Part shown: in pieces, positions 18,643 through 47,698 of the stretch
Numbering within the stretch: the stretch's first letter is position 1
Layout of the letters: every line of letters starts with the position of its first letter
Assembly (NCBI GenBank): GCA_050183765.1
Contig: JBFXAZ010000013.1
Span: 2,265 to 66,264 of the forward strand
Direction of reading: 5' to 3'
Length of the DNA stretch: 64,000 bases
Source of the DNA: Reyranellaceae bacterium
GTDB lineage: Bacteria; Pseudomonadota; Alphaproteobacteria; Reyranellales; Reyranellaceae
Made by a program: the position numbers and the translations under genes
The notes under the pieces: model-generated
The model's database searches: none
What the model was told of the DNA's origin: nothing
The model's input: the letters and a program-made list of their open reading frames with translations, nothing else

Positions 18643-19747
18643 GCCGGGCTTCGGGCGGGATGCCGTCGCTGCGTCGGACCAGGCCACGCAGGCGGCGCAG
18701 GTTGAGGGCGACGAAGGTCGCGGGCTCGCGCGCCAGCAGCGCCTCGCGGGCAAGCAGTGCGGCGGCGTTGGGATCGCGCGGGAACATCGCCAGCCAGTCG
18801 GCCAGCATGCGCGCGAAGACGTGGCCCGCGAGCCCGACGGGCCGCTGCGACAGCGCTTCCGGCACCAGGATCTGCGGCAGCCCCAGAGTCACCATCAGCG
18901 CGAGGGTCGCGTTGAGCGCGGGCATCAGCGCCGCGCGTCGGGCGCGCGCCTCGATCTCCTGCCAGTCGATGGCGCCGTGGTGGCGCGCCAGCAACCGGGA
19001 CAGATCGATCACCTTGGACAGGGTCGGCGCGAAGAAGCGGTCCTTGGCGATGTTCGAGATCGCGATCAGGCAGGCGTGCTCCGGCGACGGCGCGGCGAAG
19101 GTGCCGTGCGCATAAGCGACGCGACGGGCCGCCTTGCGCACGTCGTCCGCCGGCAGGCCCCGGTGCAGCGGCCAGGAATCGGCCTCGACGTGCAGGTCGA
19201 TGTTGCACAGGCCGTCGGGCGAGAAGAACGGCACGAAGCTGGCGTCGGAAACGAAGCCCCAGCGCCGCCGCCCATCGGCGGCGAAGGCGTAGTTGCGCTT
19301 GCCGAACAGGTCGATCACCGCCGCCAGCTGGTCGCGGCGAACCAGAACGTCGAGGTCGCCGGTGATCCGCGCGGCGGGATCCGGGTACAGAGCGTGGGCA
19401 TGGGCGAAGCCCTTCAGCGCCACCGGATCCAGCCCGGCTTGGGTCATCAGGCGCATCGCCTCCGCCTGCGCGCCAAGCGTCAGCCGGGCGACCAGCAGAG
19501 CCTGCCGGGCGGTTGCCGCATCGATCGGCGAGGGCATACCGGCCAAAGTCAGTGGCTTCAGAAGACTTTCGGCCCAGGCAGGCGATACGCGCCGACAAAG
19601 CCGTTGCGCGAGGATCGATAGCGCGGCGGCCGGGGCCGCTGCGGCGGGCCGACCGGTCAGCAGCACCGCCCACAATGGCCCCGCCGCAGCCTCGATGCCC
19701 TCCATCCGCTCCATCCCGGACCATCCCGCCGCCGCGCGGCGTCCCAA
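18629..19747 (-). CDS. Nucleotidyltransferase family protein (PF14907-like)
   Basis: ALKGFAHAHALYPDPAARITGDLDVLV...NIDLH matches the 'uncharacterised nucleotidyltransferase' family pattern. The 3' end overlaps the PqqD gene by 14 nt (convergent). The start codon is uncertain. Confidence 0.68.
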   Translation of the reverse strand: MGRRAAAGWSGMERMEGIEAAAGPLWAVLLTGRPAAAAPAAALSILAQRLCRRVSPAWAESLLKPLTLAGMPSPIDAATARQALLVARLTLGAQAEAMRLMTQAGLDPVALKGFAHAHALYPDPAARITGDLDVLVRRDQLAAVIDLFGKRNYAFAADGRRRWGFVSDASFVPFFSPDGLCNIDLHVEADSWPLHRGLPADDVRKAARRVAYAHGTFAAPSPEHACLIAISNIAKDRFFAPTLSKVIDLSRLLARHHGAIDWQEIEARARRAALMPALNATLALMVTLGLPQILVPEALSQRPVGLAGHVFARMLADWLAMFPRDPNAAALLAREALLAREPATFVALNLRRLRGLVRRSDGIPPEARLSPS

Positions 19748-19825
19748 CGAAATGACGTGCCACGGCCCGTATGTTAGAGTGGCACCTTAACACATCGACG
19801 CCACCGGAGCGGGTTCCGACCCGAG

Positions 19826-32981: not shown

Positions 32982-34367
32982 GTGAGCGAGAGCGAGGCGA
33001 TCATGCCGGCGCCTTCCGCGCCGTCGGCGGCCGCTCAAGCGGTGGCTGCCGCGCGGCGTACGCGTCCGAGCTTCGACGAGACGACAGCGTTTCTCGAAGG
33101 ACGCGCCGGCGTGCGCTTGCGCTCGCTGGTGCAGATTCGCTGGGTTGCCGTCGCCGGCCAGGCGGTGACCGCGGGCGCCGTTCACTGGGGCCTGGGGTTC
33201 AAGCTGCCGGTGCTGTTCGTGTTCGGCACCATCGGCATGTCGGCCCTGCTCAACCTGATCTTCGAGCTCGGCCGGCCCTCCAGCGCACAGTTGCGCGACC
33301 GCGAGGCCGCGGTCTTCCTCGGCTTCGACGTGCTGCAGCTCACCCTGCTGCTCTATCTCACCGGCGGCATCGCCAATCCCTTCGTGCTGCTGCTGCTGGC
33401 GCCGGTCGCGGTCGCCGGCTCTAATCTGTCGCGCCGCAGCGTCACCGTGCTCACCGGGCTCAGCGTGCTGTGCACCGGACTGGTCACCCTGTTTCACCTG
33501 CCGCTGCCATGGGACGGCACGCCGCCGGTCCTGCCGCCGATCTTCGTCATCGCGGTCTGGCTGGCGGTGACGCTGTCGATCGTGCTGATCGCGCTCTATA
33601 CGTGGCGGCTCGCCGACGAGAGCCGAAGGATGCGCGATGCGCTGGCCGCCGTGGCGGCGACCCTGGCGCATGAGCAGCGCATCTCCGCTCTGGGCGCCCT
33701 GGCGGCGGCGGCGGCGCACGAGCTGGGCAGCCCGCTGTCGACCATCGCGGTGGTCAGTCGCGAGATGCAGCGCGAGGTCGAGGCCGACGATCCGCTGCGC
33801 GAGGACGTGGATCTGCTGGTCGATCAGGCGGAGCGCTGCCGTACCATTCTCGCACGGCTGAGCGTCGATCCGGTGGGCGACGTGTCGGACGCCTATACGG
33901 TCGTGCCGGTCCCCGCCCTGGTGGAGGCGGCGGCTGAGCCATGGAACGATGGCCGGGTGACGATCGAGTTCGAGGCCGGCCGTGCTGCCCCCTCGGCGCC
34001 GGAGGTTGCACCGGTCATGGTGCGTGGCCCCGAGTTCCTGCAGGGAATCGGCAACTTGGTGCAGAACGCCTGCGGCTTCGCCCAGTCGAAGGTCGTGATC
34101 AGCACACGATGGACGGCCGCGTGGGTCGAAGTGACCGTGCAGGATGACGGGCCGGGCTTTCCCGATACCTTGCTGGACGAGCTGGGCGCCCCGTTCCTGT
34201 CGACGCGCGGGAGCACCGACGGCCACATGGGCCTGGGCGTGTTCATCGCCAAGACCCTGCTGGAACGAACCGGGGCCATCATTCGTTTCGACAATCGCCC
34301 GCCCTCGGCAGGCAGCGGCGCCCGAGTCACGGCGCGCTGGAAGAACCCGGTATTCCGGTCTACTTAA
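32982..34367 (+). CDS. regB: Redox-responsive sensor histidine kinase (RegB/PrrB/ActS family)
   Basis: Multi-TM N-terminal domain, H-box AAAAHELGSPLSTI, and an ATPase domain (GNLVQNACGFA, DDGPGF, GLGVFIAKTLLE). Confidence 0.85.
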   Translation: MSESEAIMPAPSAPSAAAQAVAAARRTRPSFDETTAFLEGRAGVRLRSLVQIRWVAVAGQAVTAGAVHWGLGFKLPVLFVFGTIGMSALLNLIFELGRPSSAQLRDREAAVFLGFDVLQLTLLLYLTGGIANPFVLLLLAPVAVAGSNLSRRSVTVLTGLSVLCTGLVTLFHLPLPWDGTPPVLPPIFVIAVWLAVTLSIVLIALYTWRLADESRRMRDALAAVAATLAHEQRISALGALAAAAAHELGSPLSTIAVVSREMQREVEADDPLREDVDLLVDQAERCRTILARLSVDPVGDVSDAYTVVPVPALVEAAAEPWNDGRVTIEFEAGRAAPSAPEVAPVMVRGPEFLQGIGNLVQNACGFAQSKVVISTRWTAAWVEVTVQDDGPGFPDTLLDELGAPFLSTRGSTDGHMGLGVFIAKTLLERTGAIIRFDNRPPSAGSGARVTARWKNPVFRST

Positions 34368-34421
34368 GGTCAACGGGCAGTCGCCCGCCGACAGCATTCG
34401 AAAGCGAGCAGGGGACGAACC

Positions 34422-35009
34422 GTGGCCAACCGCGACGAGAAACCCGGCGCGGCCGCGACAGCGGCGGATGCCGGCGACGATACGGAGCGCAGCCTCCTGA
34501 TCGCCGATGACGACCAGGCGTTCCGCATCCGGCTGGCGCGCGCCATGGAGCAGCGCGGCTATGTGGTGACGTCCGTCGGCTCGGTCGCCGAGGCGCTGGC
34601 GCAGGCGGCGTCGCCGCCGGCCTATGCAGTCATCGACCTGCGGCTGGGCGACGGCAACGGGCTGGAGATCGTCGGCCCGCTGCGCAAGGCGCGTCCCGAC
34701 ATGCGCATCGTCGTGCTCACCGGTTATGGCAACATCGCCACCGCCGTCGCCGCGGTGAAGGAAGGCGCGGTCGACTACCTGTCGAAGCCGGCCGACGCCG
34801 ACGCCATCGAACAGGCGCTGGTGGCGCACGGCAAGAAGCTGCCGCCGCCGCCGAGCAATCCGATGTCAGCCGATCGCGTGCGCTGGGAGCACATCCAGCG
34901 CGTCTTCGAGCAATGCGATCGCAACGTGTCGGAAACCGCGCGGCGGCTCAATATGCATCGCCGCACCCTGCAGCGGATTCTCGGCAAGCACGCACCGCGC
35001 GAGCAGTAG
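34422..35009 (+). CDS. regA: Response regulator (RegA/PrrA/ActR family)
   Basis: Receiver domain LLIADDDQAFRIRLARAM...DLRLGDGNG, and the highly conserved Fis-type HTH NVSETARRLNMHRRTLQRIL. Confidence 0.9.
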   Translation: MANRDEKPGAAATAADAGDDTERSLLIADDDQAFRIRLARAMEQRGYVVTSVGSVAEALAQAASPPAYAVIDLRLGDGNGLEIVGPLRKARPDMRIVVLTGYGNIATAVAAVKEGAVDYLSKPADADAIEQALVAHGKKLPPPPSNPMSADRVRWEHIQRVFEQCDRNVSETARRLNMHRRTLQRILGKHAPREQ

Positions 35010-35053: not shown

Positions 35054-36160
35054 TCAGCTCGGGCTGAGCGGCGTCGGGTCCGGCGGCTTGGGGTCGGCCT
35101 CGACGATCGGCGTGGTGGTCTTGGTCGTCGTCGTCGGACGTCCGGATGGCAGCCTGGCGAGCGCCCGGTCGATCTTCTCCTGCTCCTGGAGGCAGGTCGC
35201 ATCCGAGGCGGCCGCGCCCGGCGCCGAGGCATCGAGCAGGAAGGAGGAGGGCTGGTTGGCCGGCTCGACGATCACGGCACCGACCTCGATGCCGGCGGGG
35301 AAGCCGAGGGTCAGCTGGCCACGATCGCTGTCGGTCTCGAACACGATCGCCGGCGCGCTGCCCGGCAACAGGTTGGCGGCGGCCACCGCCCGATCGCGAT
35401 CGTCGCCGACCAGCACGCCACGCTGCAGCCAGCGGTTGGGAGAGACGGCCAGCACCTCAAGCACACGGCCGTTCACCTCGATGCTCGATCCGAAGGGCAG
35501 GTGCTCTGCCTGGACACGCTGCTGCGTCGAGCCCAACAGGATGACACGCAGGCGGCCCTGCGGTACCGCGGTCTTGAAGGCGCGCACGTCGAGAAGCGAG
35601 TCGCCGGTCAGGACATAGTTCTCGATATAGAGCGCGCCACGCGGGCCACCAGCGATACGGCTGTCGCCCGGCACGATCGGAATGGCGCCGGCCGAGGGCT
35701 GGGTGCCGCGCGGCTGGAAGTCGAAGGCGAGCGAGCCGGCAGGCATGCTCCAGCGCTTCACGCCCACGGCATTGATGAGATAGGCCGAGCAGACGTTGCT
35801 CTTCGCCATGCGCGCCACGTCATGTGCCGGCGACTGCGCGACGGTGGCCGTGCCCAGCGACTGACGCCCGGTCTGGCAATCGCCGCGGCGGCAGCGCTCG
35901 TCGATCGCTTCAAGCAGGCGTATCGCCCGGGCACTGGTCTGGGCACGATCCCCGAAGGTTGGCCGCTCTTCGCCCCGGATGAAGTCGTCGGCCTGCTTGC
36001 GCCAGCCGGCATCGTTGCGCGCGGCACCCTCGACAATGGCGCTGATTTCGCGGCCATCGCTGTCGGGTGTCGCGGCGGCCAACTGCGGGGACTGCGCAGC
36101 GGCGCCAAAGGCGACAGCGACAAGGGCGGAACAGATCGGGAATAGAGCGCGCAAATTCAT
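35054..36160 (-). CDS. Secreted protein of unknown function, paralog A (Thr/Pro-rich C-terminal tail)
   Basis: Signal peptide MNLRALFPICSALVAVAFGAAAQ. It shares blocks with the 38438..39505 product (GDSLLDVRAFK, LPGSAPAIVFE, VEPANQPS, CLQEQEKID). The tail is PTTTTKTTTPIVEADPKPPDP. Confidence 0.62.
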   Translation of the reverse strand: MNLRALFPICSALVAVAFGAAAQSPQLAAATPDSDGREISAIVEGAARNDAGWRKQADDFIRGEERPTFGDRAQTSARAIRLLEAIDERCRRGDCQTGRQSLGTATVAQSPAHDVARMAKSNVCSAYLINAVGVKRWSMPAGSLAFDFQPRGTQPSAGAIPIVPGDSRIAGGPRGALYIENYVLTGDSLLDVRAFKTAVPQGRLRVILLGSTQQRVQAEHLPFGSSIEVNGRVLEVLAVSPNRWLQRGVLVGDDRDRAVAAANLLPGSAPAIVFETDSDRGQLTLGFPAGIEVGAVIVEPANQPSSFLLDASAPGAAASDATCLQEQEKIDRALARLPSGRPTTTTKTTTPIVEADPKPPDPTPLSPS

Positions 36161-36329
36161 TTTGATCAATTCTAGGTTCAATATCAGACTCTATAATATT
36201 GATTTTATTGTATTTTCGCCACAGGATTCTTTGGCGGTCAGGCGGGCAATTAAAATGCAATAATATCAATCATTTAGTGAGCTTTATTGATCTAAAACTA
36301 CGGATATCCACCCGATGTTCGCACGCCAC

Positions 36330-36358
36330 AAAGAAAACGGGCCGGCAAAGCCGGCCCG
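36330..36358 (-). terminator. Rho-independent terminator after the Wza-like gene
   Basis: On the minus strand, hairpin CGGGCCGGC-TTT-GCCGGCCCG followed by TTTTCTTT, 25 nt after the stop at 36383. Confidence 0.6.
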
Positions 36359-36382
36359 TTCGAACTCGAATCGACGGATTGA

Positions 36383-37015
36383 TCAGAAGAACTTGCGCGG
36401 CACTTCGACGGTATCGCCCGGCAGGAGCGGCGTCTCGGCATTGCCCTCGAGCTTCTCCCCGGCCCGATAGATGATGGCGGTCTCGGTGCTGCCCCGGCGC
36501 TCGTAGCCGCCGGCCATCGCGACCGCCCCACGGACATCCATACCGAACGAGAACGGATAACGACCCGCCTGGCGGACCTGGCCGAGCACGGTCACCGGCC
36601 TGTAGCCGACGACCTGCACGGTGACCTTGGGATCGCGCAGGATGCCGCCCTGGGAGAACTTGGCGCGGATCTCGTCCTGCACCTCGCCGACCGTGCGATT
36701 GCCGGCCGCCACCTCGCCGATCAGCGCGACGACGATCTTGCCGCCGGCATCGACCTCCAGCTCACCGCCGAGGTCGGACTGGCCCAGCACGACCACCTTC
36801 ACCTTGTCGCCGACGCCGAGCTTGTAGTCGAGGCCACCGACCCCGCCGAGCTGCTTCGGTGCCGGCTTGCTGGGGCCGCTGCTCGACGAGGTATCGCACG
36901 CCGCCAGGGCGACGGCGACGAGGCCGCCCAGCAGCAGGCTGACCAGGAAGCGGAACGTGTCGCCGAAGCGCGTAAGGCTGTGCTGACTTGTCACGATGAG
37001 ATCATCCCGCAGCAA
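36383..37015 (-). CDS. Polysaccharide export outer-membrane lipoprotein (Wza/GumB-like: Poly_export + SLBB)
   Basis: Lipobox LVAVALAAC. Poly_export-like YKLGVGDKVKVVVLGQSDLGGELEVDAGGKIVVALIGEVAAGNRTVGEVQDEI followed by SLBB-like VTVLGQVRQAGRYPF. A non-ATG start (TTG 37015 or GTG 36994) is required. Confidence 0.8.
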   Translation of the reverse strand: MLRDDLIVTSQHSLTRFGDTFRFLVSLLLGGLVAVALAACDTSSSSGPSKPAPKQLGGVGGLDYKLGVGDKVKVVVLGQSDLGGELEVDAGGKIVVALIGEVAAGNRTVGEVQDEIRAKFSQGGILRDPKVTVQVVGYRPVTVLGQVRQAGRYPFSFGMDVRGAVAMAGGYERRGSTETAIIYRAGEKLEGNAETPLLPGDTVEVPRKFF

Positions 37016-37039
37016 TTTCCTACAAGCTGCGGGAAGATA

Positions 37040-38434
37040 TCACAATTGTCCGCCGAGCGTTAGCAAGTAGCGGTTGTCGCGGTAGGCGAAACCCGCGGTA
37101 TCCGAAACGCGGCGTTCGTGGACGTAGCGCGGTCCGACGAAGACCTGCGGGATGATGTAGTACTTCGCGCCGATGTCGAAGATGAAATAGTTGTCGGTGC
37201 GATCGAGCGGGGTGGTGTAGTCGTACCGCTGCCAGGAGAAGCCGGCATCGACCAGCAGCTCGTCGATCGGCAGGTAGCCGACACGCAGCTGCAGGCCGGT
37301 ATTGATGGCGTTGCCGGACGCCACGCCACCGACCGCCGTCCGGTACTCGGTGACGCCGCGACGACCTTCCAGCTCGACCGAGATCGTGTCGGTCGGATTC
37401 CAGTACAGGCGCGCGAGCGCCGACAGACCGCCGATCGACGACAGGCGCGGATCGCTGAAGCTGCGGCGGAAATAGCCGAGGCCCAGTTCAGCGGTCACGG
37501 TACGCGTGACGTCGTAGGCGATGCCGGCACGAATGTCGAAGCCGTGCGAGTTGCGCTGGAAACCGAACGGATCGACGGCGTTGTCGTAGCGCACCCACTG
37601 GTAGGACGGATCGATGAAGACGGACAGCTCCGGCGTGACCTTGTAGCCGAAGCGGCCGGCGACCTCGAACTGGTTGAAGTCCTGATTGGTGCCGCCCGTG
37701 CCCGTGACATAGGTCACGCGCTGGAAGCGGGGCCCGATGCGGACAAAGAAGGGATCGCCGTTGTAGCTGACCGACAGCCCGGTGGTGAGCTGGTGCACGA
37801 TCGAATCAGTGCCGCCGCCGAGCGTACCTGGCTGGCCGGGACCGAGATGGACGCGCGAGAACTCTGCCTCGCCGTTGAGCGCGAACTCGTCGTTGATGTC
37901 GAAGCGGCCACGCGTGCCGACCTGGAATGATTCGTAGCTCTGGCCGGTGTTCGAGACGACGCGCGCCAACTCGCCCAGCGCGTAGAACTGCAGGGCGTGC
38001 ACGTCCCATTCGCTGTCGACGGTCACGCCCGGACGGACGCGGAACACCCAGTCGCTGACACGGTTGGTATCCGTGCGGAAGATGTTGTCGTCGAATTCGA
38101 CGTCGACGGCCAGTCGCGGGTGCACGACGAAGCTGCCGAGCGCGATGCCTTCCAGCTGGTCGCCGCGCGGCCCGCGCAGCACCGAGGCGTCACGCGCCGA
38201 GAGCTCCTGGACCTGGCCGCTGGGCGGCGCCGTCGTGCGCGAAACCGGCGCCGGCGTGGCCGGGCGCACGCCCGGCTGCACGCCGCTGGGCGGAGTCGTG
38301 GTGGTGGTCGTCGGCGTGGTGGTGGTCTGCGCCACCGCAATCGCCGACCACGTCACCACGGCGAGGCCGAGGGCGACGAGCGCGGTGCTCGACGCCGTCG
38401 GGAGGCCGCGCCGGAGCCAGGATGTCGGGTGCAT
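37040..38434 (-). CDS. Outer-membrane beta-barrel protein (EPS-locus-associated BBP2-like)
   Basis: Signal peptide, a poly-Thr/Pro spacer (QTTTTPTTTTTTPPSG), then alternating amphipathic beta-strand pattern ending in ...YLLTLGGQL. My family assignment is by resemblance only. Confidence 0.65.
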   Translation of the reverse strand: MHPTSWLRRGLPTASSTALVALGLAVVTWSAIAVAQTTTTPTTTTTTPPSGVQPGVRPATPAPVSRTTAPPSGQVQELSARDASVLRGPRGDQLEGIALGSFVVHPRLAVDVEFDDNIFRTDTNRVSDWVFRVRPGVTVDSEWDVHALQFYALGELARVVSNTGQSYESFQVGTRGRFDINDEFALNGEAEFSRVHLGPGQPGTLGGGTDSIVHQLTTGLSVSYNGDPFFVRIGPRFQRVTYVTGTGGTNQDFNQFEVAGRFGYKVTPELSVFIDPSYQWVRYDNAVDPFGFQRNSHGFDIRAGIAYDVTRTVTAELGLGYFRRSFSDPRLSSIGGLSALARLYWNPTDTISVELEGRRGVTEYRTAVGGVASGNAINTGLQLRVGYLPIDELLVDAGFSWQRYDYTTPLDRTDNYFIFDIGAKYYIIPQVFVGPRYVHERRVSDTAGFAYRDNRYLLTLGGQL

Positions 38435-38437
38435 CCG

Positions 38438-39505
38438 TCAGTTCCTGCTCACCGGCGGCGGCGGCGGGGGCGGCGGCGGCGGGGGCGGCGGATTGCGCGG
38501 CGGCGGCGACGACTGCGGCAGGGCTGCCAGCAGCTTGTCGAGCTTCTCCTGTTCGCGCAGGCACGAGTCGTTGGTCAGCACGCCGCTGCCGCGCGCCGTC
38601 GAGTCGAGCACCAGGGTCGAGGGCTGGCCGGCCGGCTCGATCAGCAGCGCGCCGAGCTCGGCACCCTGCGGGAACTGCAACTCGATGTAACCCTGCGTAT
38701 TGTCGATCTCGAAGATGATCGAGGGCGCGCTGCCCGGCAGGATGTTGTTGGCGACGAAGACCTGCTCCGGCGTGCCCGTGGCCAGCGCGCCGCGCGGAAT
38801 CCACTTGTCGGGACCGGCGGCGACGATGTCGAAGGGACGGCCGTTGGCGATCAGGGTGCGGCCGAACGGCGAGGACAGCGCCTGCGCCAGCGGCCGCTTG
38901 CCGCTGATCAGCGAGATGCGCAGCATGCCGTTCGGCGCCGGCACCTTGAACGAGCGCACGTCGAGCAGCGAGTCGCCCGACGCCGGATAGGCGTCGTTGT
39001 AGCGCACGCCGCGCTCGCCACCCGTGATGCGCGCGTCGCCGGTGCGAATGGGCGTCATGCCAGGATAGACCGGCGCGCGCGGCGGGTCGAAGTCGAAGGC
39101 CTGGATGTTGCGCGGCACCGTCCAGCGGCGCACGCAGACCGTGTCGATCGGATAGGCGGCGCAAACCGCGCCGCTGGCGATCTTGGCGACGTCCTGAACG
39201 GCGGCGGCAAGGCCGCCGGGGCCACCTGGCGTGCCCGGGCTGCCGGCCGCGCCGCAGCCGCCGGTGCGGCAGCGCTCGTGCAGGTTCTTGATCAGCTGGA
39301 CCGCACGATCGGTGATCTGAGAGCGATCGCCGGCGGTGACATTGCCGAGCAGGTACTCGCGAACCTGCGTCCGCCAGTCGCCGTTGTTGCGGGCGATGCG
39401 GTCGACGAGTTCGGACGACTGCGCCGCGGCGTGGCCGCACAGCACAACCGGGACCACCAAGGCAGCGGCCCAACCGGAAAGAAAGTTGCGTAGGGAGGCT
39501 CTCAT
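38438..39505 (-). CDS. Secreted protein of unknown function, paralog B (poly-proline C-terminal tail)
   Basis: Start at ATG 39505 after AGGAAG. Signal peptide MRASLRNFLSGWAAALVVPVVLCGHAAAQ. Blocks shared with paralog A: GDSLLDVRSFK, LPGSAPSIIFE, IEPAGQPS, CLREQEKLD. The tail is PPPRNPPPPPPPPPPPPPVSRN. Confidence 0.62.
   Translation of the reverse strand: MRASLRNFLSGWAAALVVPVVLCGHAAAQSSELVDRIARNNGDWRTQVREYLLGNVTAGDRSQITDRAVQLIKNLHERCRTGGCGAAGSPGTPGGPGGLAAAVQDVAKIASGAVCAAYPIDTVCVRRWTVPRNIQAFDFDPPRAPVYPGMTPIRTGDARITGGERGVRYNDAYPASGDSLLDVRSFKVPAPNGMLRISLISGKRPLAQALSSPFGRTLIANGRPFDIVAAGPDKWIPRGALATGTPEQVFVANNILPGSAPSIIFEIDNTQGYIELQFPQGAELGALLIEPAGQPSTLVLDSTARGSGVLTNDSCLREQEKLDKLLAALPQSSPPPRNPPPPPPPPPPPPPVSRN
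38453..38492 (-). repeat. In-frame GGC/GGG-rich tandem repeat encoding the poly-Pro tail
   Basis: Plus strand reads CGGCGGCGGCGGCGGGGG CGGCGGCGGCGGGGG CGGCGG, an approximately 15-nt period equal to 5 codons. Confidence 0.6.
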
Positions 39506-39913: not shown

Positions 39914-42205
39914 ATGTCTCCGCCCGACAAATCGCATGGTCATAATCCGGGACCGCAGGACGCGCCGGGGCCGGTTAGCGCCGCCGCGGGTCCGCCGCGC
40001 GAGCCGACCGCCGCCGAGCCGCGGCCCCATCGGCCTGTCGATACCCTGCTGCGCTGCCTGCTTTACGTCGCCCAGCAGATGGGGCGGCCGGTCAGCGAAG
40101 CGGAGGTTCGCGCACTGTGCCCGATCCCCGAGCGCGGGCTCGACGAACCCACCTTCCTGCTCGCCTGCTCCCGCCTGGGCTTCAAGGCCGGGCCGGTGAC
40201 GACCGACGCCGCGACGCTTCGGCGTCTGCCGCTGCCTTTCATTCTCGTCGGTGCCGACGACACGCCCTCGATGGTGGTCACCGGCCGCGATGGCGATCGC
40301 TTCACGGCGCTCGATGTCATCGACGCCAAGCCACGCACGCTCGAGCCGCGCGCCATCGCCGAGCTGACCGGCCGTGCCATCGTGCTCAAGGACATGCCGC
40401 CACAGGAGCGCCGGCGCGACTGGAAGGCGCTCCTGCATCAGCGCATCAGGCCGGTGCTCGGCGAGCTGCTGGTCTCGTCCTTCGCCATCAACGTGCTGGC
40501 GCTGGCCACGCCGCTGTTCATGATGGTGATTTTCAACAAGGTCATCGGCCAGGGCAGCCCCGACACGCTGGCGACGACGATGGTCGTGCTGATCGCCGGC
40601 ATGTCGATCGTCTACGTCTTCGACACGATCCTGCGCATCCTGCGCGGCTACGTCTCGAGCAGCACCGGCGCGCGCATCGACGCGCTGATGTCGGGCGAGG
40701 TCGTGCGCCATCTCGTGCATCTGCCGTACCGACACTTCGAGAAGACGCCGTCGGGCGTGATCGCCGAGCGGCTGCGCCAGCTCGATACGCTGCGCGCCTT
40801 CTTCACCGGCCAGATGCCGGCGCTGATCATCGATCTGGGCTTCGTCTTCGTCTATCTGGCTGCGATCTACCTGATCAACGTCATCCTCGGCGTGTTCGTC
40901 ACGCTGATGATCCCCGTCTTCCTCGGCATCTCGCTGGTCACGCATCGCGCGCAGCGGCGCTATATCGACGAGAACTTCCATGCGCTGGCGAGCAAGGGCT
41001 CGGCGCTCAACGAGACCGTCAACAACGCCGGCACCATCAAGGCGCTGGGCCTGGAAAGCGAGATCGAGCGGCGATGGCGCGAGCGCGTGGCGCGCTCGGC
41101 GTGGACGAGCTTCCGCGCCAACAACCTCGCCAACGTCGTCGCCAGCCTCACCGGCGCGCTGCAGATGTTCGTGTCGCTGGGCGTGATCCTGCTCGGCACC
41201 TGGGAGATCACCAACCAGCTGATGAGCATCGGCGCGCTGATCGCCGCCAACATGCTGGCCGGCCGCGCGCTGGCGCCGATGCGCCAGGTGATCTCCGCCT
41301 GGCACACGCTGCAGTCGGTTCGCGCGGCCTTCGCCCGCATCGACGAGATGATGTCGCTCGACACCGAGATCGAGCCCGGCGCGCTCGCGCCCATGCCGCC
41401 GCTGCAGGGCGAGATCGTCTTCGAGCGAGTCTCGTTCAAGTACGACGACGGTCCGCCCGTCCTGCACGAGATCGACCTGCGCATCGAGCCCGGCACGGTG
41501 ATCGGCATCATCGGGCCCTCGGGCTCGGGCAAGACGACGATCTCCAACCTGCTGCAAGGTCTCTACACCCCGACCTCCGGCCGCGTGCTGGTCGACCGCA
41601 CCGACATCGCCCATATCTCGCCGGCGCAGCTGCGTGCGCAGACCGGCGCGGTGCCGCAGGACGTGCAGCTGTTCTCCGGCACCGTGCGCGAGAACATCGC
41701 CATGGGCGTCGCCGACAAGGACCCCGGCCGCATCGTCGCCGTGGCCAAGTTCGTCGGCGCGCACAACTTCATCCAGAAGCTGCCGCAGGGCTACAACACC
41801 GTGCTGAGCGAGCGCGGCGGCGGCCTCTCGCAGGGCCAGAAGCAGTTGTTGTGCATCGCCCGCGCGCTGATCCGCAACCCACGCATCATCGTGCTCGACG
41901 AGGCGACCAGCGCACTCGACCCGGCCACCGAGGAGCAGCTCCTGCGCACGCTGCGCACCAACGCGCGCGGCCGCACCATCGTCATGGTCACCCATCGCCT
42001 GGCGCCGCTGGCCATCGCCGACAAGGTGGCGCTGGTGATCGATGGCCGCATCGAACGCATCGGCCCGCCGACCGAGGTGATGGCCTATGCCCGCATCCGC
42101 ATGGCCGAGGCCAGCCGCGCCCAGCCGCCCGGCCAGTCGCCGATGAGCCAGGGCTCCAACGTCGCCAGCCTGGTCGCCGGTGGCGCCCCGCTGGCTGGCG
42201 CCTGA
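39914..42205 (+). CDS. Type I secretion system permease/ATPase with N-terminal degenerate C39-like domain (HlyB-type)
   Basis: 763 aa. An N-terminal domain of about 150 aa (VDTLLRCLLYVAQQMGRPVSEAE...) is followed by a 6-TM ABC domain. Walker A GPSGSGKTT, signature LSQGQKQLL, Walker B IIVLDEATSALD. Confidence 0.88.
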   Translation: MSPPDKSHGHNPGPQDAPGPVSAAAGPPREPTAAEPRPHRPVDTLLRCLLYVAQQMGRPVSEAEVRALCPIPERGLDEPTFLLACSRLGFKAGPVTTDAATLRRLPLPFILVGADDTPSMVVTGRDGDRFTALDVIDAKPRTLEPRAIAELTGRAIVLKDMPPQERRRDWKALLHQRIRPVLGELLVSSFAINVLALATPLFMMVIFNKVIGQGSPDTLATTMVVLIAGMSIVYVFDTILRILRGYVSSSTGARIDALMSGEVVRHLVHLPYRHFEKTPSGVIAERLRQLDTLRAFFTGQMPALIIDLGFVFVYLAAIYLINVILGVFVTLMIPVFLGISLVTHRAQRRYIDENFHALASKGSALNETVNNAGTIKALGLESEIERRWRERVARSAWTSFRANNLANVVASLTGALQMFVSLGVILLGTWEITNQLMSIGALIAANMLAGRALAPMRQVISAWHTLQSVRAAFARIDEMMSLDTEIEPGALAPMPPLQGEIVFERVSFKYDDGPPVLHEIDLRIEPGTVIGIIGPSGSGKTTISNLLQGLYTPTSGRVLVDRTDIAHISPAQLRAQTGAVPQDVQLFSGTVRENIAMGVADKDPGRIVAVAKFVGAHNFIQKLPQGYNTVLSERGGGLSQGQKQLLCIARALIRNPRIIVLDEATSALDPATEEQLLRTLRTNARGRTIVMVTHRLAPLAIADKVALVIDGRIERIGPPTEVMAYARIRMAEASRAQPPGQSPMSQGSNVASLVAGGAPLAGA

Positions 42206-42216
42206 GGAGACGCGCG

Positions 42217-43734
42217 ATGGCCGAGAGCGCGAGACTGCCGACTGGCGCGTTGCAACCGACGCCCGACGACGGCTCCGGCGCGGCACGCCCGTCCAACCCG
42301 CCCGGAACCGCGGTCGCGCCGCCGGCCAGGCCGCCGGAGAACGCCGTCACCCGCGTCCTCGCCGAGGCGCGTCTGCTCGGCACCCCGCGCGCGAAAGTCG
42401 AGGATTTTCTGCCGGACATCGAGGCGATCAGCGAGCGTCGCCATTCGCCCTATGCCAGCTGGTTGATCTACGCCCTCACCGGGTTCGTCGCCGCGGCGGT
42501 GCTGTGGATGTCGCTCTCCCACATCGATCAGGTGGCGACGGCCCCGGGCGTGATCCGGCCGGCCGGCAAGGCCAAAACGCTCAGCCATCCCGAAGGCGGA
42601 CGCGTCGCGCGCATCCTGGTGAAGGACGGCGACCACGTCCGGGAAGGCCAGGATCTCATCGAGCTCGATTCCGACCAGGTCGACCAGGAGATCGCCAAGT
42701 CGCGCGCGGTCTATCAGGCGCTTTCGGGCGAAGTCGCCCGGCTCGAGGCCGAGACGGCCCAGCAGGCGACGGCGCCGGTCTTTCCGCCGGAGCTGGCCCG
42801 TACCTCAGCGGTGATCGCCGACCAGCTCAACCTGTGGCGCGCGCGCCAGGCGGAGCTGCAGGCACGCCGCACCGCCGCCGATTCCGTCGTGGAGCAGACG
42901 CGCGCGCGCATGCAGGGCGCGCAAGGCCGCATCAAGACACTCGAGGAAAGCGTCACCATCCTGTCGCAGCGCGAGAAGGCGCTGCGCGGGCTGGTCGGGC
43001 AGAAGTACTTTCCCGAACTGCAGTACCTTGGCGTCAAGCGCGATCTCGTGGTCGCGCGCGGCGATCTCGCCTCGGCGCACGACGATCTGAAGAACGCCGA
43101 GCAAGCCTACGCCGAAGCCGTCGAACGGCGCACGATCGTCGATCGCGAGTGGATGTCGGCCGGCCTGAAGCGGCTGGGCGAGGCCCGGGCCGAGCGCGAT
43201 CGCGCCATGGGCACGCTCGAGCAGCAGCTCACCTTCAAGCGCAACCTGGTGCTGCGCGCGCCGATCGACGGCATCGTCAACGGCCTGCGCCTGACCAACC
43301 CCGGCCAGGCGGTACGCCCCGGCGAGCCGGTCGTCGGAGTCGTGCCGTCCGGCGAAGCGCGGCGCATCGAAGTCGAGATCCGGGTCACGAACGCCGACAT
43401 CGGCATGATCACCCAGGGCCAGGCCTGCGTGGTCAAGCTGCAGACCTACGACTGGGTCCGCTATGGCGCGCTCGACTGCAAGGTCACCTACATCGCCGCC
43501 GATTCCATCGCGCCCGATCCGGCGATCAACCCGCAGGCCGCCGCGACCACGCAGCCGTACTTCATCGTCCTGGCGTCGCTGGAGCACGACTACCTGGGCG
43601 ACGACCCGCGCCGCAACCGGGTGACTCCGGGCATGACCGCTCTGGTCGACCTCCATATCGGTCGCCGCTCGATCATGGGTTACTTCACGGACCGCGTCTT
43701 CTCGACCGTCGGCGGCGCGATGAAGGAGCGGTGA
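42217..43734 (+). CDS. HlyD-family type I secretion periplasmic adaptor
   Basis: Start at ATG 42217 after GAGGAGA, inside the fused 40117..43734 track ORF. A single TM (WLIYALTGFVAAAVLWM), a lipoyl-like hairpin (GGRVARILVKDGDHVREGQDLIELD) and a long coiled coil. Confidence 0.88.
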   Translation: MAESARLPTGALQPTPDDGSGAARPSNPPGTAVAPPARPPENAVTRVLAEARLLGTPRAKVEDFLPDIEAISERRHSPYASWLIYALTGFVAAAVLWMSLSHIDQVATAPGVIRPAGKAKTLSHPEGGRVARILVKDGDHVREGQDLIELDSDQVDQEIAKSRAVYQALSGEVARLEAETAQQATAPVFPPELARTSAVIADQLNLWRARQAELQARRTAADSVVEQTRARMQGAQGRIKTLEESVTILSQREKALRGLVGQKYFPELQYLGVKRDLVVARGDLASAHDDLKNAEQAYAEAVERRTIVDREWMSAGLKRLGEARAERDRAMGTLEQQLTFKRNLVLRAPIDGIVNGLRLTNPGQAVRPGEPVVGVVPSGEARRIEVEIRVTNADIGMITQGQACVVKLQTYDWVRYGALDCKVTYIAADSIAPDPAINPQAAATTQPYFIVLASLEHDYLGDDPRRNRVTPGMTALVDLHIGRRSIMGYFTDRVFSTVGGAMKER

Positions 43735-43928: not shown

Positions 43929-46184
43929 ATGGCGAACGTGACGCGCTTGCAAACGGGCTACAGCAACCTCCCAGTCGAAGCGCCGCCGCCGGTCTCGCAG
44001 CAGGGGCCCCAGGGCGATCCTTCGCCGTCGGTATCGGTCCGCAATATCCTGGGCATGCTGCGGCGCCACAAGCTGCTGATCGGCGGCGTGGCGCTGATCG
44101 GCACGACCATCGCCTGGCTGATCGCCAACCAGCTGACCCCGGTCTATCAGGCCCAGGCCGACATCGTCATCGAAGGCGGCGGCGATACGCCGATCATCAA
44201 TCCCAACCAGGGCGCGGGGTCGCCCGACGTCAACATGGAGGCCGAGGCCGCCAAGCTGAAGAGCGAGGCCAATGCCCGCATCTCGGTGCGCGCGCTGAAC
44301 CTGATCGAGCATCCGCTGTTCAATCAGGAGCTCGCGCCGCCGCGGCAGGGCAAGCTCAAGGCGCTGTTCGCCCCCGTGATGAAGGATCGGCGCCGGCGAG
44401 GCGCCGCCGCGCCGCCGCGCCTGCCGGCCGAGGAAGTCCGCCGCCGCCTCGACGCGATGCCGCCGGACCAGAAGGACCCCTTCTACAACCAGATCGCCGG
44501 CGCCTGGGCTGGCGGCCTGTCGACGGCGATCCCGCCGTTCTCGCGCGTGCTCAGCATCCGCTACCGCTCGTCCGATCCGCAGCTCGCCGCGCACTCGGTG
44601 AACCAGGCGATCCGGACCTACATGGAGCAGCAGAAGGACGACAAGCAGAAGGATGCGCTGGAGCTGATGCGCTTCCTCGCCACCCAGACCGAGGACGCCC
44701 GCAAGGCGGTGGTCAAGGCGGAGCGCGAGCTGGCCGAATTCCGCGCCGCCAACCAGATCTACGATACCGGTGACGCCTCGACGCAGACCAAGCAGCTGAT
44801 CGAGCTGCAGTCGCAGCTGCTGGCGGCCGAGAAGGACCTGCGCGAGAAGGCGGCGCGTGCCGAGAACGGCATGTTGCCCAACGACAACACCCTGCTCGCC
44901 GAGCTGGCGAACGCCGAGAAGCGCGTCGCCGAGCTCGCGGCGCAGTTCGGGCCGAGCCATCCCGACATGGTGCGCGCGCGCCGACAGCTGGGCGCCGTGC
45001 AGGCCCGCGTCGAGGCCGAGCGTGCCCGCGTCATCCGCAACCAGGGCCGCGAGGTCGAGGCCACGCGCATCTCGGTCGAGAAGCTGCGCGCGGAGGTCAG
45101 CCGTCTCGAGGACCAGATCCGGCGCCAGACCGTGAACCTGGCGCAGCTGCGCACGCTGCAGACCGAGCTCGACACGCGCAAGCAGTACTACCAGGCGCTG
45201 CTGCAGCGCTTCCAGGGCGTCAAGGTCGACACCGAGGTGAAGCGCAAGTCGATCGCCCGTGTGCTGAACGACGCCGAGGTCCCCGCCACGCCCGTCGCGC
45301 CGCGCAAGGATCTCATCGTCCTGATGGCCTTCGTCGCCTCGCTGGCGCTGGGCGTGGCGGTCGCGATCGTCATCGAGCTGATGGACTCCGGCTTCCGTTC
45401 GATCCACCAGCTCGAGCAGATGACCGGCGTGGCCGCGCTGGGCATGGTGCCGTTCCAGTCCGGCCGGCTGCGGCGCAACGCCAAGCCGTGGATGAACATC
45501 GTCGACAAGCCGAACTCGGCCTACTCCGAGGCGTTGCGCACGATCCGGACCGGCATCCAGCTGTCGAGCGCCGACCATCCGCAGCGCACCGTCGTCGTCA
45601 CCTCGTCGGTGCCCGGCGAGGGCAAGACCACCACGTCGCTGTCGCTGGCCGCCGCCTCGGCCGCCTCGGGCGCGCGCACGCTCCTGATCGATTGCGACCT
45701 GCGCCAGCCCTCGGCGCACAAGAACCTCGGCGTCGACAACGAGGCCGGCCTGGCCGAGTTCCTCTCGGGGCAACGCAACCTCGAGGAGCTGGTGCACGTC
45801 GAGCCGCGCACCGGCCTGTACTACATCCTCGCCGGCAAGCGTCCACCCTCGCCTACCGACCTGCTCGGCTCCCTGCGCATGCGCAAGCTGCTGCAGCAGC
45901 TGGGCGACGCCTTCGACCTCGTCGTGCTCGACACGCCGCCGGTGCTCGCGGTGTCGGACGCGCTCCTGCTGGTGCGCCAGGCCGACACGACGATCTTTGT
46001 TGTGCGCTGGGAGAAGACGCGGCGCGATATCGCCTCGACCGGGGTGAAGATGGTCTACGAGGCCGGCGCGCGCCTGTCGGGCATCGTGCTTACCCAGGTG
46101 GACCTGCGCCGCCACGCCCAGTACGACTATACCGACAGCGGCGTGTACTACTACCGCGGCTACAAGAAGTACTACGGCGACTAG
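43929..46184 (+). CDS. Polysaccharide co-polymerase / tyrosine autokinase (GumC/ExoP/Wzc-like)
   Basis: Wzz-like N-terminal TM plus a coiled-coil periplasmic domain, a second TM, then a BY-kinase P-loop VVVTSSVPGEGKTTTSLSLA and Walker B-like FDLVVLDTPP. C-terminal Tyr cluster YDYTDSGVYYYRGYKKYYGD. Confidence 0.9.
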   Translation: MANVTRLQTGYSNLPVEAPPPVSQQGPQGDPSPSVSVRNILGMLRRHKLLIGGVALIGTTIAWLIANQLTPVYQAQADIVIEGGGDTPIINPNQGAGSPDVNMEAEAAKLKSEANARISVRALNLIEHPLFNQELAPPRQGKLKALFAPVMKDRRRRGAAAPPRLPAEEVRRRLDAMPPDQKDPFYNQIAGAWAGGLSTAIPPFSRVLSIRYRSSDPQLAAHSVNQAIRTYMEQQKDDKQKDALELMRFLATQTEDARKAVVKAERELAEFRAANQIYDTGDASTQTKQLIELQSQLLAAEKDLREKAARAENGMLPNDNTLLAELANAEKRVAELAAQFGPSHPDMVRARRQLGAVQARVEAERARVIRNQGREVEATRISVEKLRAEVSRLEDQIRRQTVNLAQLRTLQTELDTRKQYYQALLQRFQGVKVDTEVKRKSIARVLNDAEVPATPVAPRKDLIVLMAFVASLALGVAVAIVIELMDSGFRSIHQLEQMTGVAALGMVPFQSGRLRRNAKPWMNIVDKPNSAYSEALRTIRTGIQLSSADHPQRTVVVTSSVPGEGKTTTSLSLAAASAASGARTLLIDCDLRQPSAHKNLGVDNEAGLAEFLSGQRNLEELVHVEPRTGLYYILAGKRPPSPTDLLGSLRMRKLLQQLGDAFDLVVLDTPPVLAVSDALLLVRQADTTIFVVRWEKTRRDIASTGVKMVYEAGARLSGIVLTQVDLRRHAQYDYTDSGVYYYRGYKKYYGD

Positions 46185-46208: not shown

Positions 46209-46994
46209 ATGGCGATGACCACGAACCGTATCTCGCTGATCTCCGACGTGCGGCCGGACGAGCGCGCGCGGCGCAGGAGCAGCCGCCAGGCGGGTCCCGA
46301 GCATCTGCGCCACCGGCTGTCGCTGCCGCTGGGGATCATCGCCATCGTCGGCGGCCTGGCGCTGGGCGCCGTGGCGTTCCCGCACCTGATTGCGGCCATC
46401 GCCGTCGTCCAGGCACGACCGATCGCCGAGCGCTTCATCAGCGGCGAGCGCGGTCCCTATCTGGCGAATGTCGAGCACGCCGGCGAGCGGCTGCAATTCG
46501 CGCTGGGCCTGGCGCCGGACGCCGATACCGCTGTGCTGCTGGCCGATCTGCGGCTGTGGCAGGCGCGGCGCGCCGCGGACACCAAGACCACGCTCGCCTA
46601 TGCCCGGCAGAGCGCCGAGGCCGCGAAGCTCGCGATACGCCATGCCCCGGCCCATGCCACGGCGTGGACCGCGCTGGCCGACGCGCTCGAAGTGCTGAAC
46701 CCGGGCGACGCCTCGGTCGTCGCGCCGCTGTCACGCGCGCTGCTGGTGTCGCCTTACGACCCGAGGCGGCGGCGCACGCGCGTCAACCTGGCGATGCGCC
46801 ATTGGCAGGCGCTGCCGCCGCAGGCGCAGAAGGCGGCCGGTCCGCCGATCGTCGCCATGGCGCGGGCCGACCTGGATGTGCTGGCCAGGCTCACCAAGCA
46901 GAACCTGGCGCTGGGCGCGGTGCGCGACGCGCTGGCCGCCGACGCCGAGCTCGCCCGCCGCTTCGACGCCGCCTATATCGCCCTGCCTAATTGA
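46209..46994 (+). CDS. Membrane-anchored hypothetical protein
   Basis: One TM (LSLPLGIIAIVGGLALGAVAFPHLIAAIAVV) followed by a helical Ala/Leu/Arg-rich domain. It lies directly downstream of the tyrosine kinase gene. I recognise no family. Confidence 0.5.
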   Translation: MAMTTNRISLISDVRPDERARRRSSRQAGPEHLRHRLSLPLGIIAIVGGLALGAVAFPHLIAAIAVVQARPIAERFISGERGPYLANVEHAGERLQFALGLAPDADTAVLLADLRLWQARRAADTKTTLAYARQSAEAAKLAIRHAPAHATAWTALADALEVLNPGDASVVAPLSRALLVSPYDPRRRRTRVNLAMRHWQALPPQAQKAAGPPIVAMARADLDVLARLTKQNLALGAVRDALAADAELARRFDAAYIALPN

Positions 46995-47538: not shown

Positions 47539-47698
47539 TCGCAAGATATATCCCAACCCGCCCTGTCGATCCACCTGTCAAAGCCCCGATAAGCGGCGGA
47601 TTCGGCATGGTTTTTGCGGGTTGGTCGCGTTGGGGAAGCAAACTGGACAAGCCGCGCGGGGCTTTGCTATTGCCGCGTTTGGGGTCGCTGGAGCCATC

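Follow-up and report, generated by a model that had tools for sequence, protein, structure and literature searches.

An uncatalogued family of Sec-exported alphaproteobacterial proteins as a candidate accessory of class-3 OPX/β-barrel translocons

Two paralogs encoded on either side of an outer-membrane export pair belong to an uncatalogued family of alphaproteobacterial Sec-exported proteins of about 35 kDa. An even chance is given here to the reading that the class-3 OPX/β-barrel-porin translocon has a third, accessory component in these proteins, which would be periplasmic and glycan-binding and would be tethered or modified through their tail. The paralogs lie in the window (the full 64-kb stretch of DNA that was analysed) and are referred to as A (product of 35054-36160, minus strand) and B (product of 38438-39505, minus strand). 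The relevant features of the window are:

17419..18342, + strand: HPr-kinase-like protein, with weak HprK_rel_A/B and Hpr_kinase_C matches
18373..18642, + strand: PqqD-family peptide-binding protein (PF05402, E 6e-9)
18629..19747, - strand: PF14907 (NTP_transf_5) nucleotidyltransferase, with homologues beside the family gene in distant loci
19826..21889, + strand: Wzy_C-domain protein of the polymerase or ligase type, with homologues among the Wzy_C genes of related loci
32982..35009, + strand: two-component pair whose histidine kinase is of the 6TM_PilS type and whose response regulator has an HTH_8-type output
35054..36160, - strand: paralog A, 368 aa, old duplicate, monocistronic; the mature protein contains four Cys, and PLSPS-COOH terminates its Thr/Pro-rich tail
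36335..36361, - strand: intrinsic-terminator-like hairpin at the end of the B-barrel-OPX operon, with a T tail and a stem of 12 bp (nine G-C pairs)
36383..37015, - strand: class-3 OPX, 210 aa, with Poly_export and SLBB domains only, lipobox LAAC and the end ...PRKFF
37040..38434, - strand: BBP2_2 outer-membrane β-barrel, 464 aa (PF10082, E 7e-70), presumed porin of the composite translocon
38438..39505, - strand: paralog B, 355 aa, first gene of the B-barrel-OPX operon, with a tail of 13 Pro and then VSRN-COOH
39914..42205, + strand: ABC exporter of the type I secretion type, divergent from B, whose N-terminal domain is C39-like
42202..43734, + strand: HlyD-family adaptor for type I secretion (TIGR01843; score 287 bits, cut-off 209)
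43929..46184, + strand: polysaccharide co-polymerase/tyrosine autokinase (Wzz, GNVR, AAA_31)
46209..46994, + strand: conserved protein of ~230-260 aa, weakly VpsP-like, found behind the co-polymerase in most related loci

Two old paralogs of an unnamed family

A and B are real genes and old duplicates within one unnamed exported family. The initial annotation had described two minus-strand ORFs, encoding diverged paralogs, at these coordinates; both are present, and their products share 126/302 identities (42%; BLASTP E 2e-81). The Cys motifs that it quoted (ERCRRGDC/ERCRTGGC and NVCSAY.../AVCAAY...) and the blocks common to the two proteins, GDSLLDVR(A/S)FK, LPGSAP(A/S)I(V/I)FE, (V/I)EPA(N/G)QPS and CL(Q/R)EQEK(I/L)D, were all found. 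It had also assigned each protein a Sec signal, and both N-termini, as read from the sequence, do resemble Sec type-I leaders, with a basic n-region, a hydrophobic core and an AAA-Q boundary. Both genes are under purifying selection, with dN/dS values against the orthologues of locus L001 of 0.21 for A and 0.24 for B, the barrel and OPX genes reaching 0.29 and 0.30, respectively. The proposed duplication inside the export locus held as to membership of the locus but not as to a local origin, since A and B lie on different deep branches of their subgroup tree and the duplication is thus old.

An exhaustive HMMER profile search placed 151 cluster representatives in the family at E<=1e-3, and 79 at E<=1e-10. 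There were no Pfam matches among 64 members (A, B and 62 distant relatives), no NCBIfam matches for A, B and one distant relative, and no match for family proteins in a PDB sequence search, so that A and B, previously reported as unplaceable in any family, indeed lack a Pfam or NCBIfam assignment.

The translocon and its conserved neighbour gene

As had been noted, A and B flank the Poly_export and SLBB protein and the BBP2_2 barrel. This pair is a true class-3 translocon, an assignment based on an OPX composed of Poly_export and SLBB only, with a lipobox and a Phe-Phe end; the window OPX has no Wza_C domain, and 7/7 related OPX proteins end in [FL]F. The arrangement resembles the WzaX/S/B and WzpX/S/B proteins of Myxococcus xanthus, in which a short Poly_export and SLBB lipoprotein is likewise combined with an outer-membrane barrel, and the likeness extends to a nearby Wzc-like co-polymerase and to the terminal Phe-Phe of WzaB, which docks onto the WzpB porin (PMC12819527). 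The window barrel is likened to the Wzp porins as a presumed porin beside an OPX, with no claim of homology. The Myxococcus translocon is described as two outer-membrane parts, and the publications consulted on class-3 OPX proteins in that organism describe no third component and no counterpart of A or B.

The layout B-barrel-OPX-A is the same in five related MAG contigs. More widely, a family member is the first of a three-gene set, followed by a BBP2_2 barrel and a short class-3 OPX lipoprotein, in eight of 12 independent loci (the window, L001, L009 from Minwuia, L010, L011, L015, L016 and L018). The members in L009, L010, L011, L015, L016 and L018 are only 20-25% identical to A and share the first-gene position with B. 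This placement of the family gene directly before the outer-membrane pore pair across the Alphaproteobacteria suggests an undescribed third part of the export machine. In the other four loci (L012, L013, L014 and L017) the family member is solitary, with neither barrel nor OPX, and the protein can therefore function away from the translocon; three of these four loci hold the closest outgroups of A and B.

B occupies the ancestral first-gene position, its stop codon lying 3 nt from the barrel start, and translational coupling would keep synthesis of B and the barrel stoichiometric. A forms a transcription unit of its own beyond the terminator and may be regulated separately from the B operon; ~150 nt of AT-rich sequence follow the hairpin, upstream of A. 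The two-component pair is convergent with A and conserved beside the locus. After its signal peptide the barrel has a Thr/Pro-rich stretch, and the catalytic Cys of the C39-like domain in the ABC exporter appears from its sequence to be absent.

The conserved C-terminus and candidate tail modification

Low-complexity tails were reported for both proteins and are present: that of A is Thr/Pro-rich and ends PTTTTKTTTPIVEADPKPPDPTPLSPS, and that of B has exactly 13 consecutive Pro (CCG/CCC codons) before VSRN. As to the suggestion that they form rigid spacers, the Pro/Thr composition is lineage-specific, with a poly-Pro run of 11 to 17 among orthologues, and it is the extreme C-terminus, [AVLI]-[S/T]-P-[N/S], that is conserved family-wide. 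Of 96 representatives of single-domain size, 69 have Ser and seven have Thr at position -3, against a background of 6%; Pro is found at -2 in 43/69, and N or S at -1 in 52/69. This hydroxyl-bearing motif could be a docking peptide, by analogy with the C-terminal Phe-Phe that docks the OPX on the porin, or a site of O-modification, for which the HPr-kinase-like/PqqD/PF14907 cassette is the candidate modifier.

In its fullest form, the latter option would have the conserved C-terminal Ser/Thr of A/B-type proteins receive an O-linked modification, and as such it is possible but rather unlikely. Cytoplasmic PqqD would bind the tail, the HPr-kinase-like enzyme would phosphorylate it and the PF14907 protein would add a sugar or nucleotide before Sec export. 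The modified end would then serve as an anchor, holding either partner, protein or polysaccharide, to the other. There is precedent in lasso peptides such as paeninodin and pseudomycoidin, whose systems include the same trio of HPr-kinase, PqqD and PF14907-type proteins that accompanies the family genomically: the precursor is phosphorylated on its C-terminal Ser by HPr-kinase homologues, and a nucleotidyltransferase then extends this phosphate with a hexose (PMC8498205). A hydroxyl residue at the C-terminal end is common to both groups, and in the family it is kept through Ser-to-Thr exchange. Cassette genes immediately adjoin the family gene in 6/8 distant loci; the HprK-like and PqqD genes are directly upstream of it in L011 and L015, and PF14907 homologues are its divergent neighbours in L008, L009, L010 and L018. 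Both loci of the former kind have SPS tails, the four with PF14907 alone have SPN, and paralog A ends ...LSPS. Nevertheless, the sample sizes are tiny, the kinase and PqqD matches are far below curated cut-offs (40 bits against 200), and in the window all three cassette genes, at 17.4-19.7 kb, lie 16 kb away. Unlike the lasso systems, the family loci have no lasso cyclase or leader peptidase, and the putative substrate is a 35-kDa Sec-exported protein with its invariant Ser at -3 rather than at the last residue, which in B is Asn. The target of the cassette might instead be a sugar, or some small unannotated peptide that leaves through the neighbouring ABC/HlyD pair, although no fitting small precursor ORF was found between the cassette genes of the window.

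Predicted fold and proposed role

The AlphaFold model (pLDDT 87, pTM 0.81) comprises a helical bundle and a β-jelly-roll, in the predicted order N-terminal four-helix bundle, β-jelly-roll, one C-terminal helix, a spacer that may be flexible or rigid (Thr/Pro-rich in A, poly-Pro in B) and conserved end. In both of the independent models compared, the central 170 residues share their β-sandwich fold with non-catalytic carbohydrate-binding modules, at Foldseek E-values from 5e-6 to 2e-3. The top Foldseek match was the non-catalytic C-terminal module of Bacteroides uniformis GUS-2 (E 4.6e-6), followed by GH115 C-terminal domains, the FERONIA malectin-like domain and CBM35, all of which have the galactose-binding-like/malectin-like jelly-roll in common. 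The resemblance is at fold level only (TM 0.27 normalised to the whole query, ~180 aligned columns, 13-14% identity) and points to no particular ligand site, and no Pfam or CBM family match accompanies it. In addition, those modules are appended to an enzyme, whereas the family protein stands alone and joins its jelly-roll to a helical bundle and a conserved tail. The match to non-catalytic carbohydrate-binding modules narrows the function, to a protein that is probably sugar-binding, and partly explains the proteins, but does not make them members of a characterised family.

GH16 and several lyase families likewise have the β-jelly-roll fold. It is nevertheless improbable that A/B-type proteins act as secreted glycanases or lyases and trim the polymer once it is exported, in the manner of rhizobial ExoK, ExsH and PlyA/B, even though such enzymes are common in polysaccharide loci and type I secretion genes are adjacent (PMC1403797). 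Arg205, Asn230, Trp244 and Glu299 are near-invariant across the family, but this set includes a single acidic residue and no conserved His or Tyr, and the significant Foldseek matches were all non-catalytic modules, with no GH16 or lyase catalytic domain among them; the lack of a Pfam or PDB sequence match also speaks against an enzyme.

Less probable again is a reading in which a periplasmic cysteine protease of the LapG/HvyA type (Peptidase_C93) acts on the proteins, the C-terminal tail holding the protein at the envelope until cleavage releases or inactivates it, as with CdrA and its barrel CdrB. The LapG dialanine motif [T/A/P]AA[G/V], as defined in bioRxiv 10.1101/198937, occurs in 27/69 distant members at a fixed distance of -36 to -20 from the C-terminus, against a chance expectation of 0.027 per protein, and these members combine a helix, the motif and a short tail as LapA/CdrA-type substrates do. 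CdrA is likewise Sec-dependent and is held by its C-terminus in the neighbouring barrel (bioRxiv 10.1101/198937), Peptidase_C93 genes are found in L010, L011 and L015 beside HD-GYP or GGDEF genes, and in Caulobacter the C93 protease HvyA, encoded in a capsule export locus, blocks capsulation, its target being unknown (PMC4241560). However, the motif is absent from A, B and their entire Cys-containing subgroup, the 64-kb window has no Peptidase_C93 gene, the motif-bearing loci L017 and L018 have none within 10 kb, and the association of motif with protease (3/5 against 0/4) is not significant; moreover, family members are small and globular rather than giant adhesins.

It is most improbable that the proteins leave by type I secretion through the neighbouring ABC/HlyD pair: the ABC and HlyD genes divergently adjoin the family gene in the window, L001, L009, L010 and L016, and the C-terminal region is conserved, but cargo of this route normally has no leader, whereas a canonical Sec-type leader stands at the N-terminus of these proteins, which also have conserved Cys residues and no RTX repeats, and L011, L015 and L018 have no such pair within 10 kb. 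By description only, with no homology claimed, the family recalls Rhizobium leguminosarum PssO and Sinorhizobium meliloti ExpE1, exported proteins of unknown mechanism in polysaccharide export loci with type I secretion genes. PssO is reportedly needed for exopolysaccharide production. The same requirement applies to ExpE1, which is encoded beside export and type I secretion genes (PMC1403797); ExpE1 is type I secreted and calcium-binding, in contrast with the Sec-type leader of the family.

In the favoured reading as a translocon accessory, the translocon would be the outer-membrane end of a Wzx/Wzy-type polysaccharide pathway. The family protein would be located there in the periplasm, possibly touching the barrel or OPX, its jelly-roll would bind the nascent glycan, and the tail would position or control it. 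The structural or cargo-handling role first proposed for A and B is thus partly supported, as it fits both the conserved barrel/OPX synteny and the carbohydrate-binding-module-like fold. If this is true, the family would constitute an undescribed third part of the polysaccharide export machine.

Two paralogs of an uncatalogued exported family

The paralogs A and B and the two genes between them lie in a window of high GC content (~68%), at the following positions:

35054-36160, minus strand: paralog A, 368 aa
36383-37015, minus strand: OPX, a Poly_export+SLBB lipoprotein, 210 aa
37040-38434, minus strand: BBP2_2 (PF10082) barrel protein, 464 aa
38438-39505, minus strand: paralog B, 355 aa

The bracketing of a Poly_export+SLBB protein and a barrel by A and B, claimed in the initial annotation, is borne out, and the sequence blocks quoted there were all found in the two proteins, together with a Thr/Pro-rich tail in A and a run of exactly 13 consecutive prolines in B. 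A and B share 42% identity across 302 residues (BLASTP, E 2e-81), and the duplicated pair is confirmed as genuine, far beyond chance. Their N-termini are read as Sec type-I leaders. A lipoprotein reading was rejected for both proteins, the leader Cys being outside any lipobox and not conserved. The constraint on A and B is at least that on the barrel and OPX, with dN/dS values of 0.21 (A), 0.24 (B), 0.29 (barrel) and 0.30 (OPX) against orthologues on a related 136-kb contig.

The initial annotation could not place the proteins in any family, and neither A nor B has a Pfam or NCBIfam match at E<=0.1. Even at E<=1, Pfam gave zero matches among 64 diverse members (A, B and 62 distant ones), and NCBIfam returned nothing for A, B or the member of related locus L015, the sole distant one scanned. 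A word-indexed protein search yielded 25 close relatives, all named 'hypothetical' and without informative names, with the identical sequence labelled as a Reyranellaceae MAG protein, and a related-locus search with the family profile A1 found six close relatives only. When the family profile was run exhaustively with HMMER against 1.84 billion cluster representatives, 151 were recovered at E<=1e-3, 79 of them at E<=1e-10; most are 330-400 aa long and carry a signal peptide, and the taxonomic names on cluster members point to Alphaproteobacteria (Reyranellaceae, Minwuia, Rhodospirillales). With tblastn against plasmids, paralog A had no match, and the representative P0077 gave two partial matches to Plesiomonas hypothetical proteins. 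On a neighbour-joining tree A and B occupy separate deep branches of a Cys-containing subgroup, and the duplication is old. A and B are genuine, constrained members of this alphaproteobacterial family, which is uncatalogued, and arose by an ancient duplication.

Among weak relatives, the beta-sandwich domain of the family is found fused to PEP-CTERM sorting signals or FecR (representatives P0106, P0131, P0150, P0163, P0169 and P0171; P0045 and P0115), and it is present in proteins of 770-1230 aa (P0138, P0142, P0146 and others) with no other Pfam domain. A PEP-CTERM reading of A and B themselves was rejected: such proteins carry a PEP motif, a transmembrane helix and a basic cluster at the C-terminus, whereas A ends LSPS, B ends VSRN, neither has a transmembrane helix, and PF07589 occurs only in the weak relatives P0106 and P0150.

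Synteny with an OPX/porin export module

The strongest evidence concerning the family is its genomic context. When the neighbourhoods of twelve independent members were compared, 8/12 loci showed the family gene leading a set whose other genes encode a BBP2_2 barrel and a short Poly_export/SLBB protein, namely at B in the window and in L001, L009 (the complete Minwuia chromosome CP123782), L010, L011, L015, L016 and L018. The members in the last six have only 20-25% identity to A, indicating that the family/barrel/OPX synteny has outlived deep divergence. A Wzz/GNVR/kinase co-polymerase and a conserved ~240-aa protein come next in most of the eight, with Wzy_C and Bac_transf nearby; the other four members (L012, L013, L014 and L017) are solitary. 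Contigs of the Reyranellaceae-like lineage run co-polymerase, HlyD and ABC, then B, barrel, OPX and A, then response regulator and kinase, and this arrangement is intact wherever a contig is long enough to show it. The gap between the B stop and the barrel start is 3 nt, a strong terminator-like hairpin lies 3' of the OPX gene, and ~150 nt of AT-rich DNA lies 5' of A. B is therefore read as co-translated with the barrel, and A as a separate transcription unit.

The OPX protein contains PF02563 and PF10531 only, with no outer-membrane-spanning Wza_C segment; it has the lipobox LAAC and ends in PRKFF, and all seven related OPX proteins (7/7) end in [FL]F. The barrel protein is a PF10082 match (E 7e-70), and 24 nt separate its gene from the OPX gene downstream. 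The class-3 OPX protein WzaB of Myxococcus uses its C-terminal Phe-Phe to dock on the porin WzpB, and loss of its last three residues eliminates secretion as well as binding (PMC12819527). The genes flanked by A and B encode a class-3 OPX/porin translocon: the OPX lacks Wza_C and ends in Phe-Phe, and the gene of the presumed porin, the barrel, adjoins it. The papers that established the Myxococcus system report a pair of outer-membrane components, with nothing like A or B beside them. Assignment of A and B to a class-3 OPX/porin translocon is proposed solely from synteny: the family would be an accessory of this export module, with a fold of a glycan-binding type, and would be located in the periplasm and either docked or modified at its conserved C-terminal end. 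The family, its fold and its synteny are established, and the location, ligand, partners and tail chemistry of the protein are inferred.

Several further features of these loci were observed. After its signal peptide the barrel has a Thr/Pro-rich stretch (TTTTPTTTTTTPPSG...) resembling the tail of A, so that three envelope proteins of the locus carry low-complexity Thr/Pro segments. Convergent on A (32982-35009) lie genes for a response regulator with HTH_8-type output and a histidine kinase of the 6TM_PilS type. Related MAGs have this pair at 86-97% conservation beside the locus, L011 has a similar one ahead of its family gene, and in the window it is a likely regulator of the export locus. 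At the locus edge, directly 3' of a VpsP-like gene, lies 46987-47574, whose 195-aa product has a pair of bacterial SH3 domains (SH3_4/SH3_3). Between the PF14907 gene and an ABC exporter, L009 (7845-8645) and L010 (7885-8667) encode a conserved ~260-aa protein, 59% identical between the two, for which no Pfam or NCBIfam match and no homologue in the window was found.

Fold, conserved residues and the carboxyl end

An AlphaFold2 model built from the 64-sequence alignment (pLDDT 87, pTM 0.81) comprises four helices (32-124), a beta-sandwich (129-309), one helix (320-335) and a low-confidence tail. Foldseek searches of the PDB with two independent models matched modules resembling carbohydrate-binding modules (CBMs) at E 4.6e-6 to 2e-3, including the non-catalytic C-terminal module of Bacteroides uniformis beta-glucuronidase 2 (the best, E ~5e-6), GH115 C-terminal domains, the FERONIA malectin-like domain, CBM35 and other glycan-binding modules. 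The family models thus share the beta-sandwich jelly-roll of galactose-binding-like and malectin-like CBMs, but by sequence they belong to no curated CBM or malectin family: the 64 members have no Pfam match at E<=1, and PDB sequence searches with the profiles A1 and A2 gave noise only, with no match below E 0.03. The initial annotation had regarded a confident Foldseek match to a characterised family as evidence against its view; what was obtained is a resemblance to CBMs at the level of fold, at 13-14% identity, but not family membership. Near-invariant positions across the family are Phe148, Gly158, Gly202, Arg205, Gly224, Asn230, Trp244, Glu299, Pro300 and Ser366, and the Arg/Asn/Trp/Glu set is of the kind expected on a sugar-binding face, which it may form.

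The Cys residues are conserved only within the subgroup that holds A and B. The Cys spacing C-x4-C ... C in residues 90-124 of A (window 35790-35895) gave a weak profile match, at E 0.3, to plant-type [2Fe-2S] ferredoxins, which have the motif CX4CX2CX29C and are cytoplasmic or Tat-exported. Because A lacks the third of the ligand Cys and has a leader of the Sec type and not twin-arginine, this match is judged to be due to chance; nor are the Cys conserved family-wide.

The Pro/Thr tail had been put forward as a key feature of the proteins. Tails are indeed present in A and B, but their composition is lineage-specific and the poly-Pro length varies among orthologues: the 13 Pro of B, encoded by CCG/CCC codons (window 38450-38490), are 11, 12, 12 and 17 in L001, L002, L006 and L007. 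Family-wide conservation lies at the extreme C-terminus, where a survey of 96 representatives of 300-480 aa found Ser at position -3 in 69/96 and Thr in 7/96, with Ser making up 6% of the background. Among the 69 with Ser at -3, Pro occupies -2 in 43/69, Asn or Ser occupies -1 in 52/69, and Ala, Val, Leu or Ile occupies -4 in 59/69; A ends LSPS and B ends VSRN. The hydroxyl persists even where Ser and Thr replace one another, always equally far from the free carboxyl end, which points to a recognition or modification site rather than a mere spacer.

Modification, cleavage and alternative roles

The possibility that the family is an acceptor of phospho-glycosylation is given lower weight than the accessory role, and is raised by a cassette of HPr-kinase-like, PqqD and PF14907 nucleotidyltransferase genes. 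The window loci concerned are:

16745-17374: GmhA-like SIS gene, next to the cassette
17419-21889: HPr-kinase-like, PqqD and convergent PF14907 genes (the three cassette genes, 17419-19747) and Wzy_C

Cassette genes directly adjoin the family gene in 6/8 distant loci, with kinase and PqqD immediately upstream in L011 and L015 and PF14907 divergently adjacent in L008, L009, L010 and L018. In lasso-peptide biosynthesis, the precursor's C-terminal Ser is phosphorylated by HPr-kinase homologues, and a nucleotidyltransferase attaches a hexose to the phosphate (PMC8498205). The tail ends in Ser in both kinase+PqqD loci and in Asn in the four PF14907-only loci, a correlation between tail ending and cassette type that is suggestive on tiny numbers. 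Substrates of HPr-kinase-like RiPP tailoring kinases carry a C-terminal Ser and are encoded together with the kinase and a PqqD-type binder; A ends in Ser and B in Asn, and the invariant Ser of the family is at -3. The cassette lies 16 kb from the family genes in the window and directly beside them elsewhere, and no small precursor ORF is evident in the window cassette.

A tethered lectin released by a protease is also given lower weight. The dialanine motif [T/A/P]AA[G/V] of LapG (bioRxiv 10.1101/198937) occurs at -36 to -20 in 27/69 distant members, against an expectation of 0.027 per protein. Peptidase_C93 (C93) genes, encoding LapG/HvyA-type proteases, adjoin HD-GYP or GGDEF genes in three related loci:

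L010, 19990-20649: Peptidase_C93
L011, 19372-20067: Peptidase_C93
L015, 2602-3354: Peptidase_C93

The family members of these loci carry [P/A]AAG ~28 residues from the C-terminus and are candidate C93 substrates in capsule loci. In Caulobacter the C93 protease HvyA, encoded within the capsule export locus, blocks capsulation, and its target is unknown (PMC4241560). LapG-type substrates carry this motif in a periplasm-exposed segment; the A and B tails lack it, tblastn with three C93 proteins found nothing in the 64-kb window, and a TAAG tail did not significantly predict a nearby Peptidase_C93 (3/5 vs 0/4); the protease idea is therefore a lead for the wider family only.

A glycanase is likewise weighted below the accessory role; no catalytic jelly-roll domain (GH16, lyase) was among the Foldseek matches in the PDB.

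Type I secretion cargo, also of lower weight, would suit the neighbouring HlyD and ABC genes. Type I secretion substrates have no N-terminal Sec leader; their signal is C-terminal and usually accompanied by RTX repeats. Both A and B begin with a Sec-type leader, contain conserved Cys and have no GGxGxD repeats. A search of the window for RTX-type cargo found only housekeeping genes and a restriction enzyme. That enzyme and one further gene are:

49088-52471: Type ISP restriction-modification enzyme (N6_Mtase + Type_ISP_C), 1127 aa
24852-26756: caspase-like Peptidase_C14 with peptidoglycan-binding domain, 634 aa

The former lies in the lowest-GC part of the window (0.625 vs ~0.68) and was probably acquired horizontally. 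Rfam and tRNA scans of the window were both empty.

It is also conceivable, though improbable, that the family is the protein end-piece of the exported polysaccharide, its C-terminal Ser/Thr being phospho-glycosylated by the cassette or a Wzy_C-type enzyme and the polymer linked to or primed on the protein; in TAAG lineages a LapG/HvyA-type protease would then cut the tail, and capsule would be shut down or released. If so, a long-sought kind of target for HvyA-like proteases in alphaproteobacterial capsule loci would be named.

Class-3 OPX systems are the commonest outer-membrane polysaccharide exporters and, to our knowledge, the OPX plus porin architecture has been elucidated only recently and in Myxococcus only. 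For researchers of polysaccharide export, a family that is an accessory of this module would be of direct relevance: if a third syntenic protein is truly part of it, the alphaproteobacterial export machine has an extra part, which would change the OPX plus porin picture. The last four residues, which hardly vary, would be easy to target by mutagenesis. The family may offer a handle on the transfer or retention of capsule or exopolysaccharide at the outer membrane, on the targets of HPr-kinase-like/PqqD/nucleotidyltransferase cassettes in polysaccharide loci, and on what LapG/HvyA-type proteases cleave in capsule loci.
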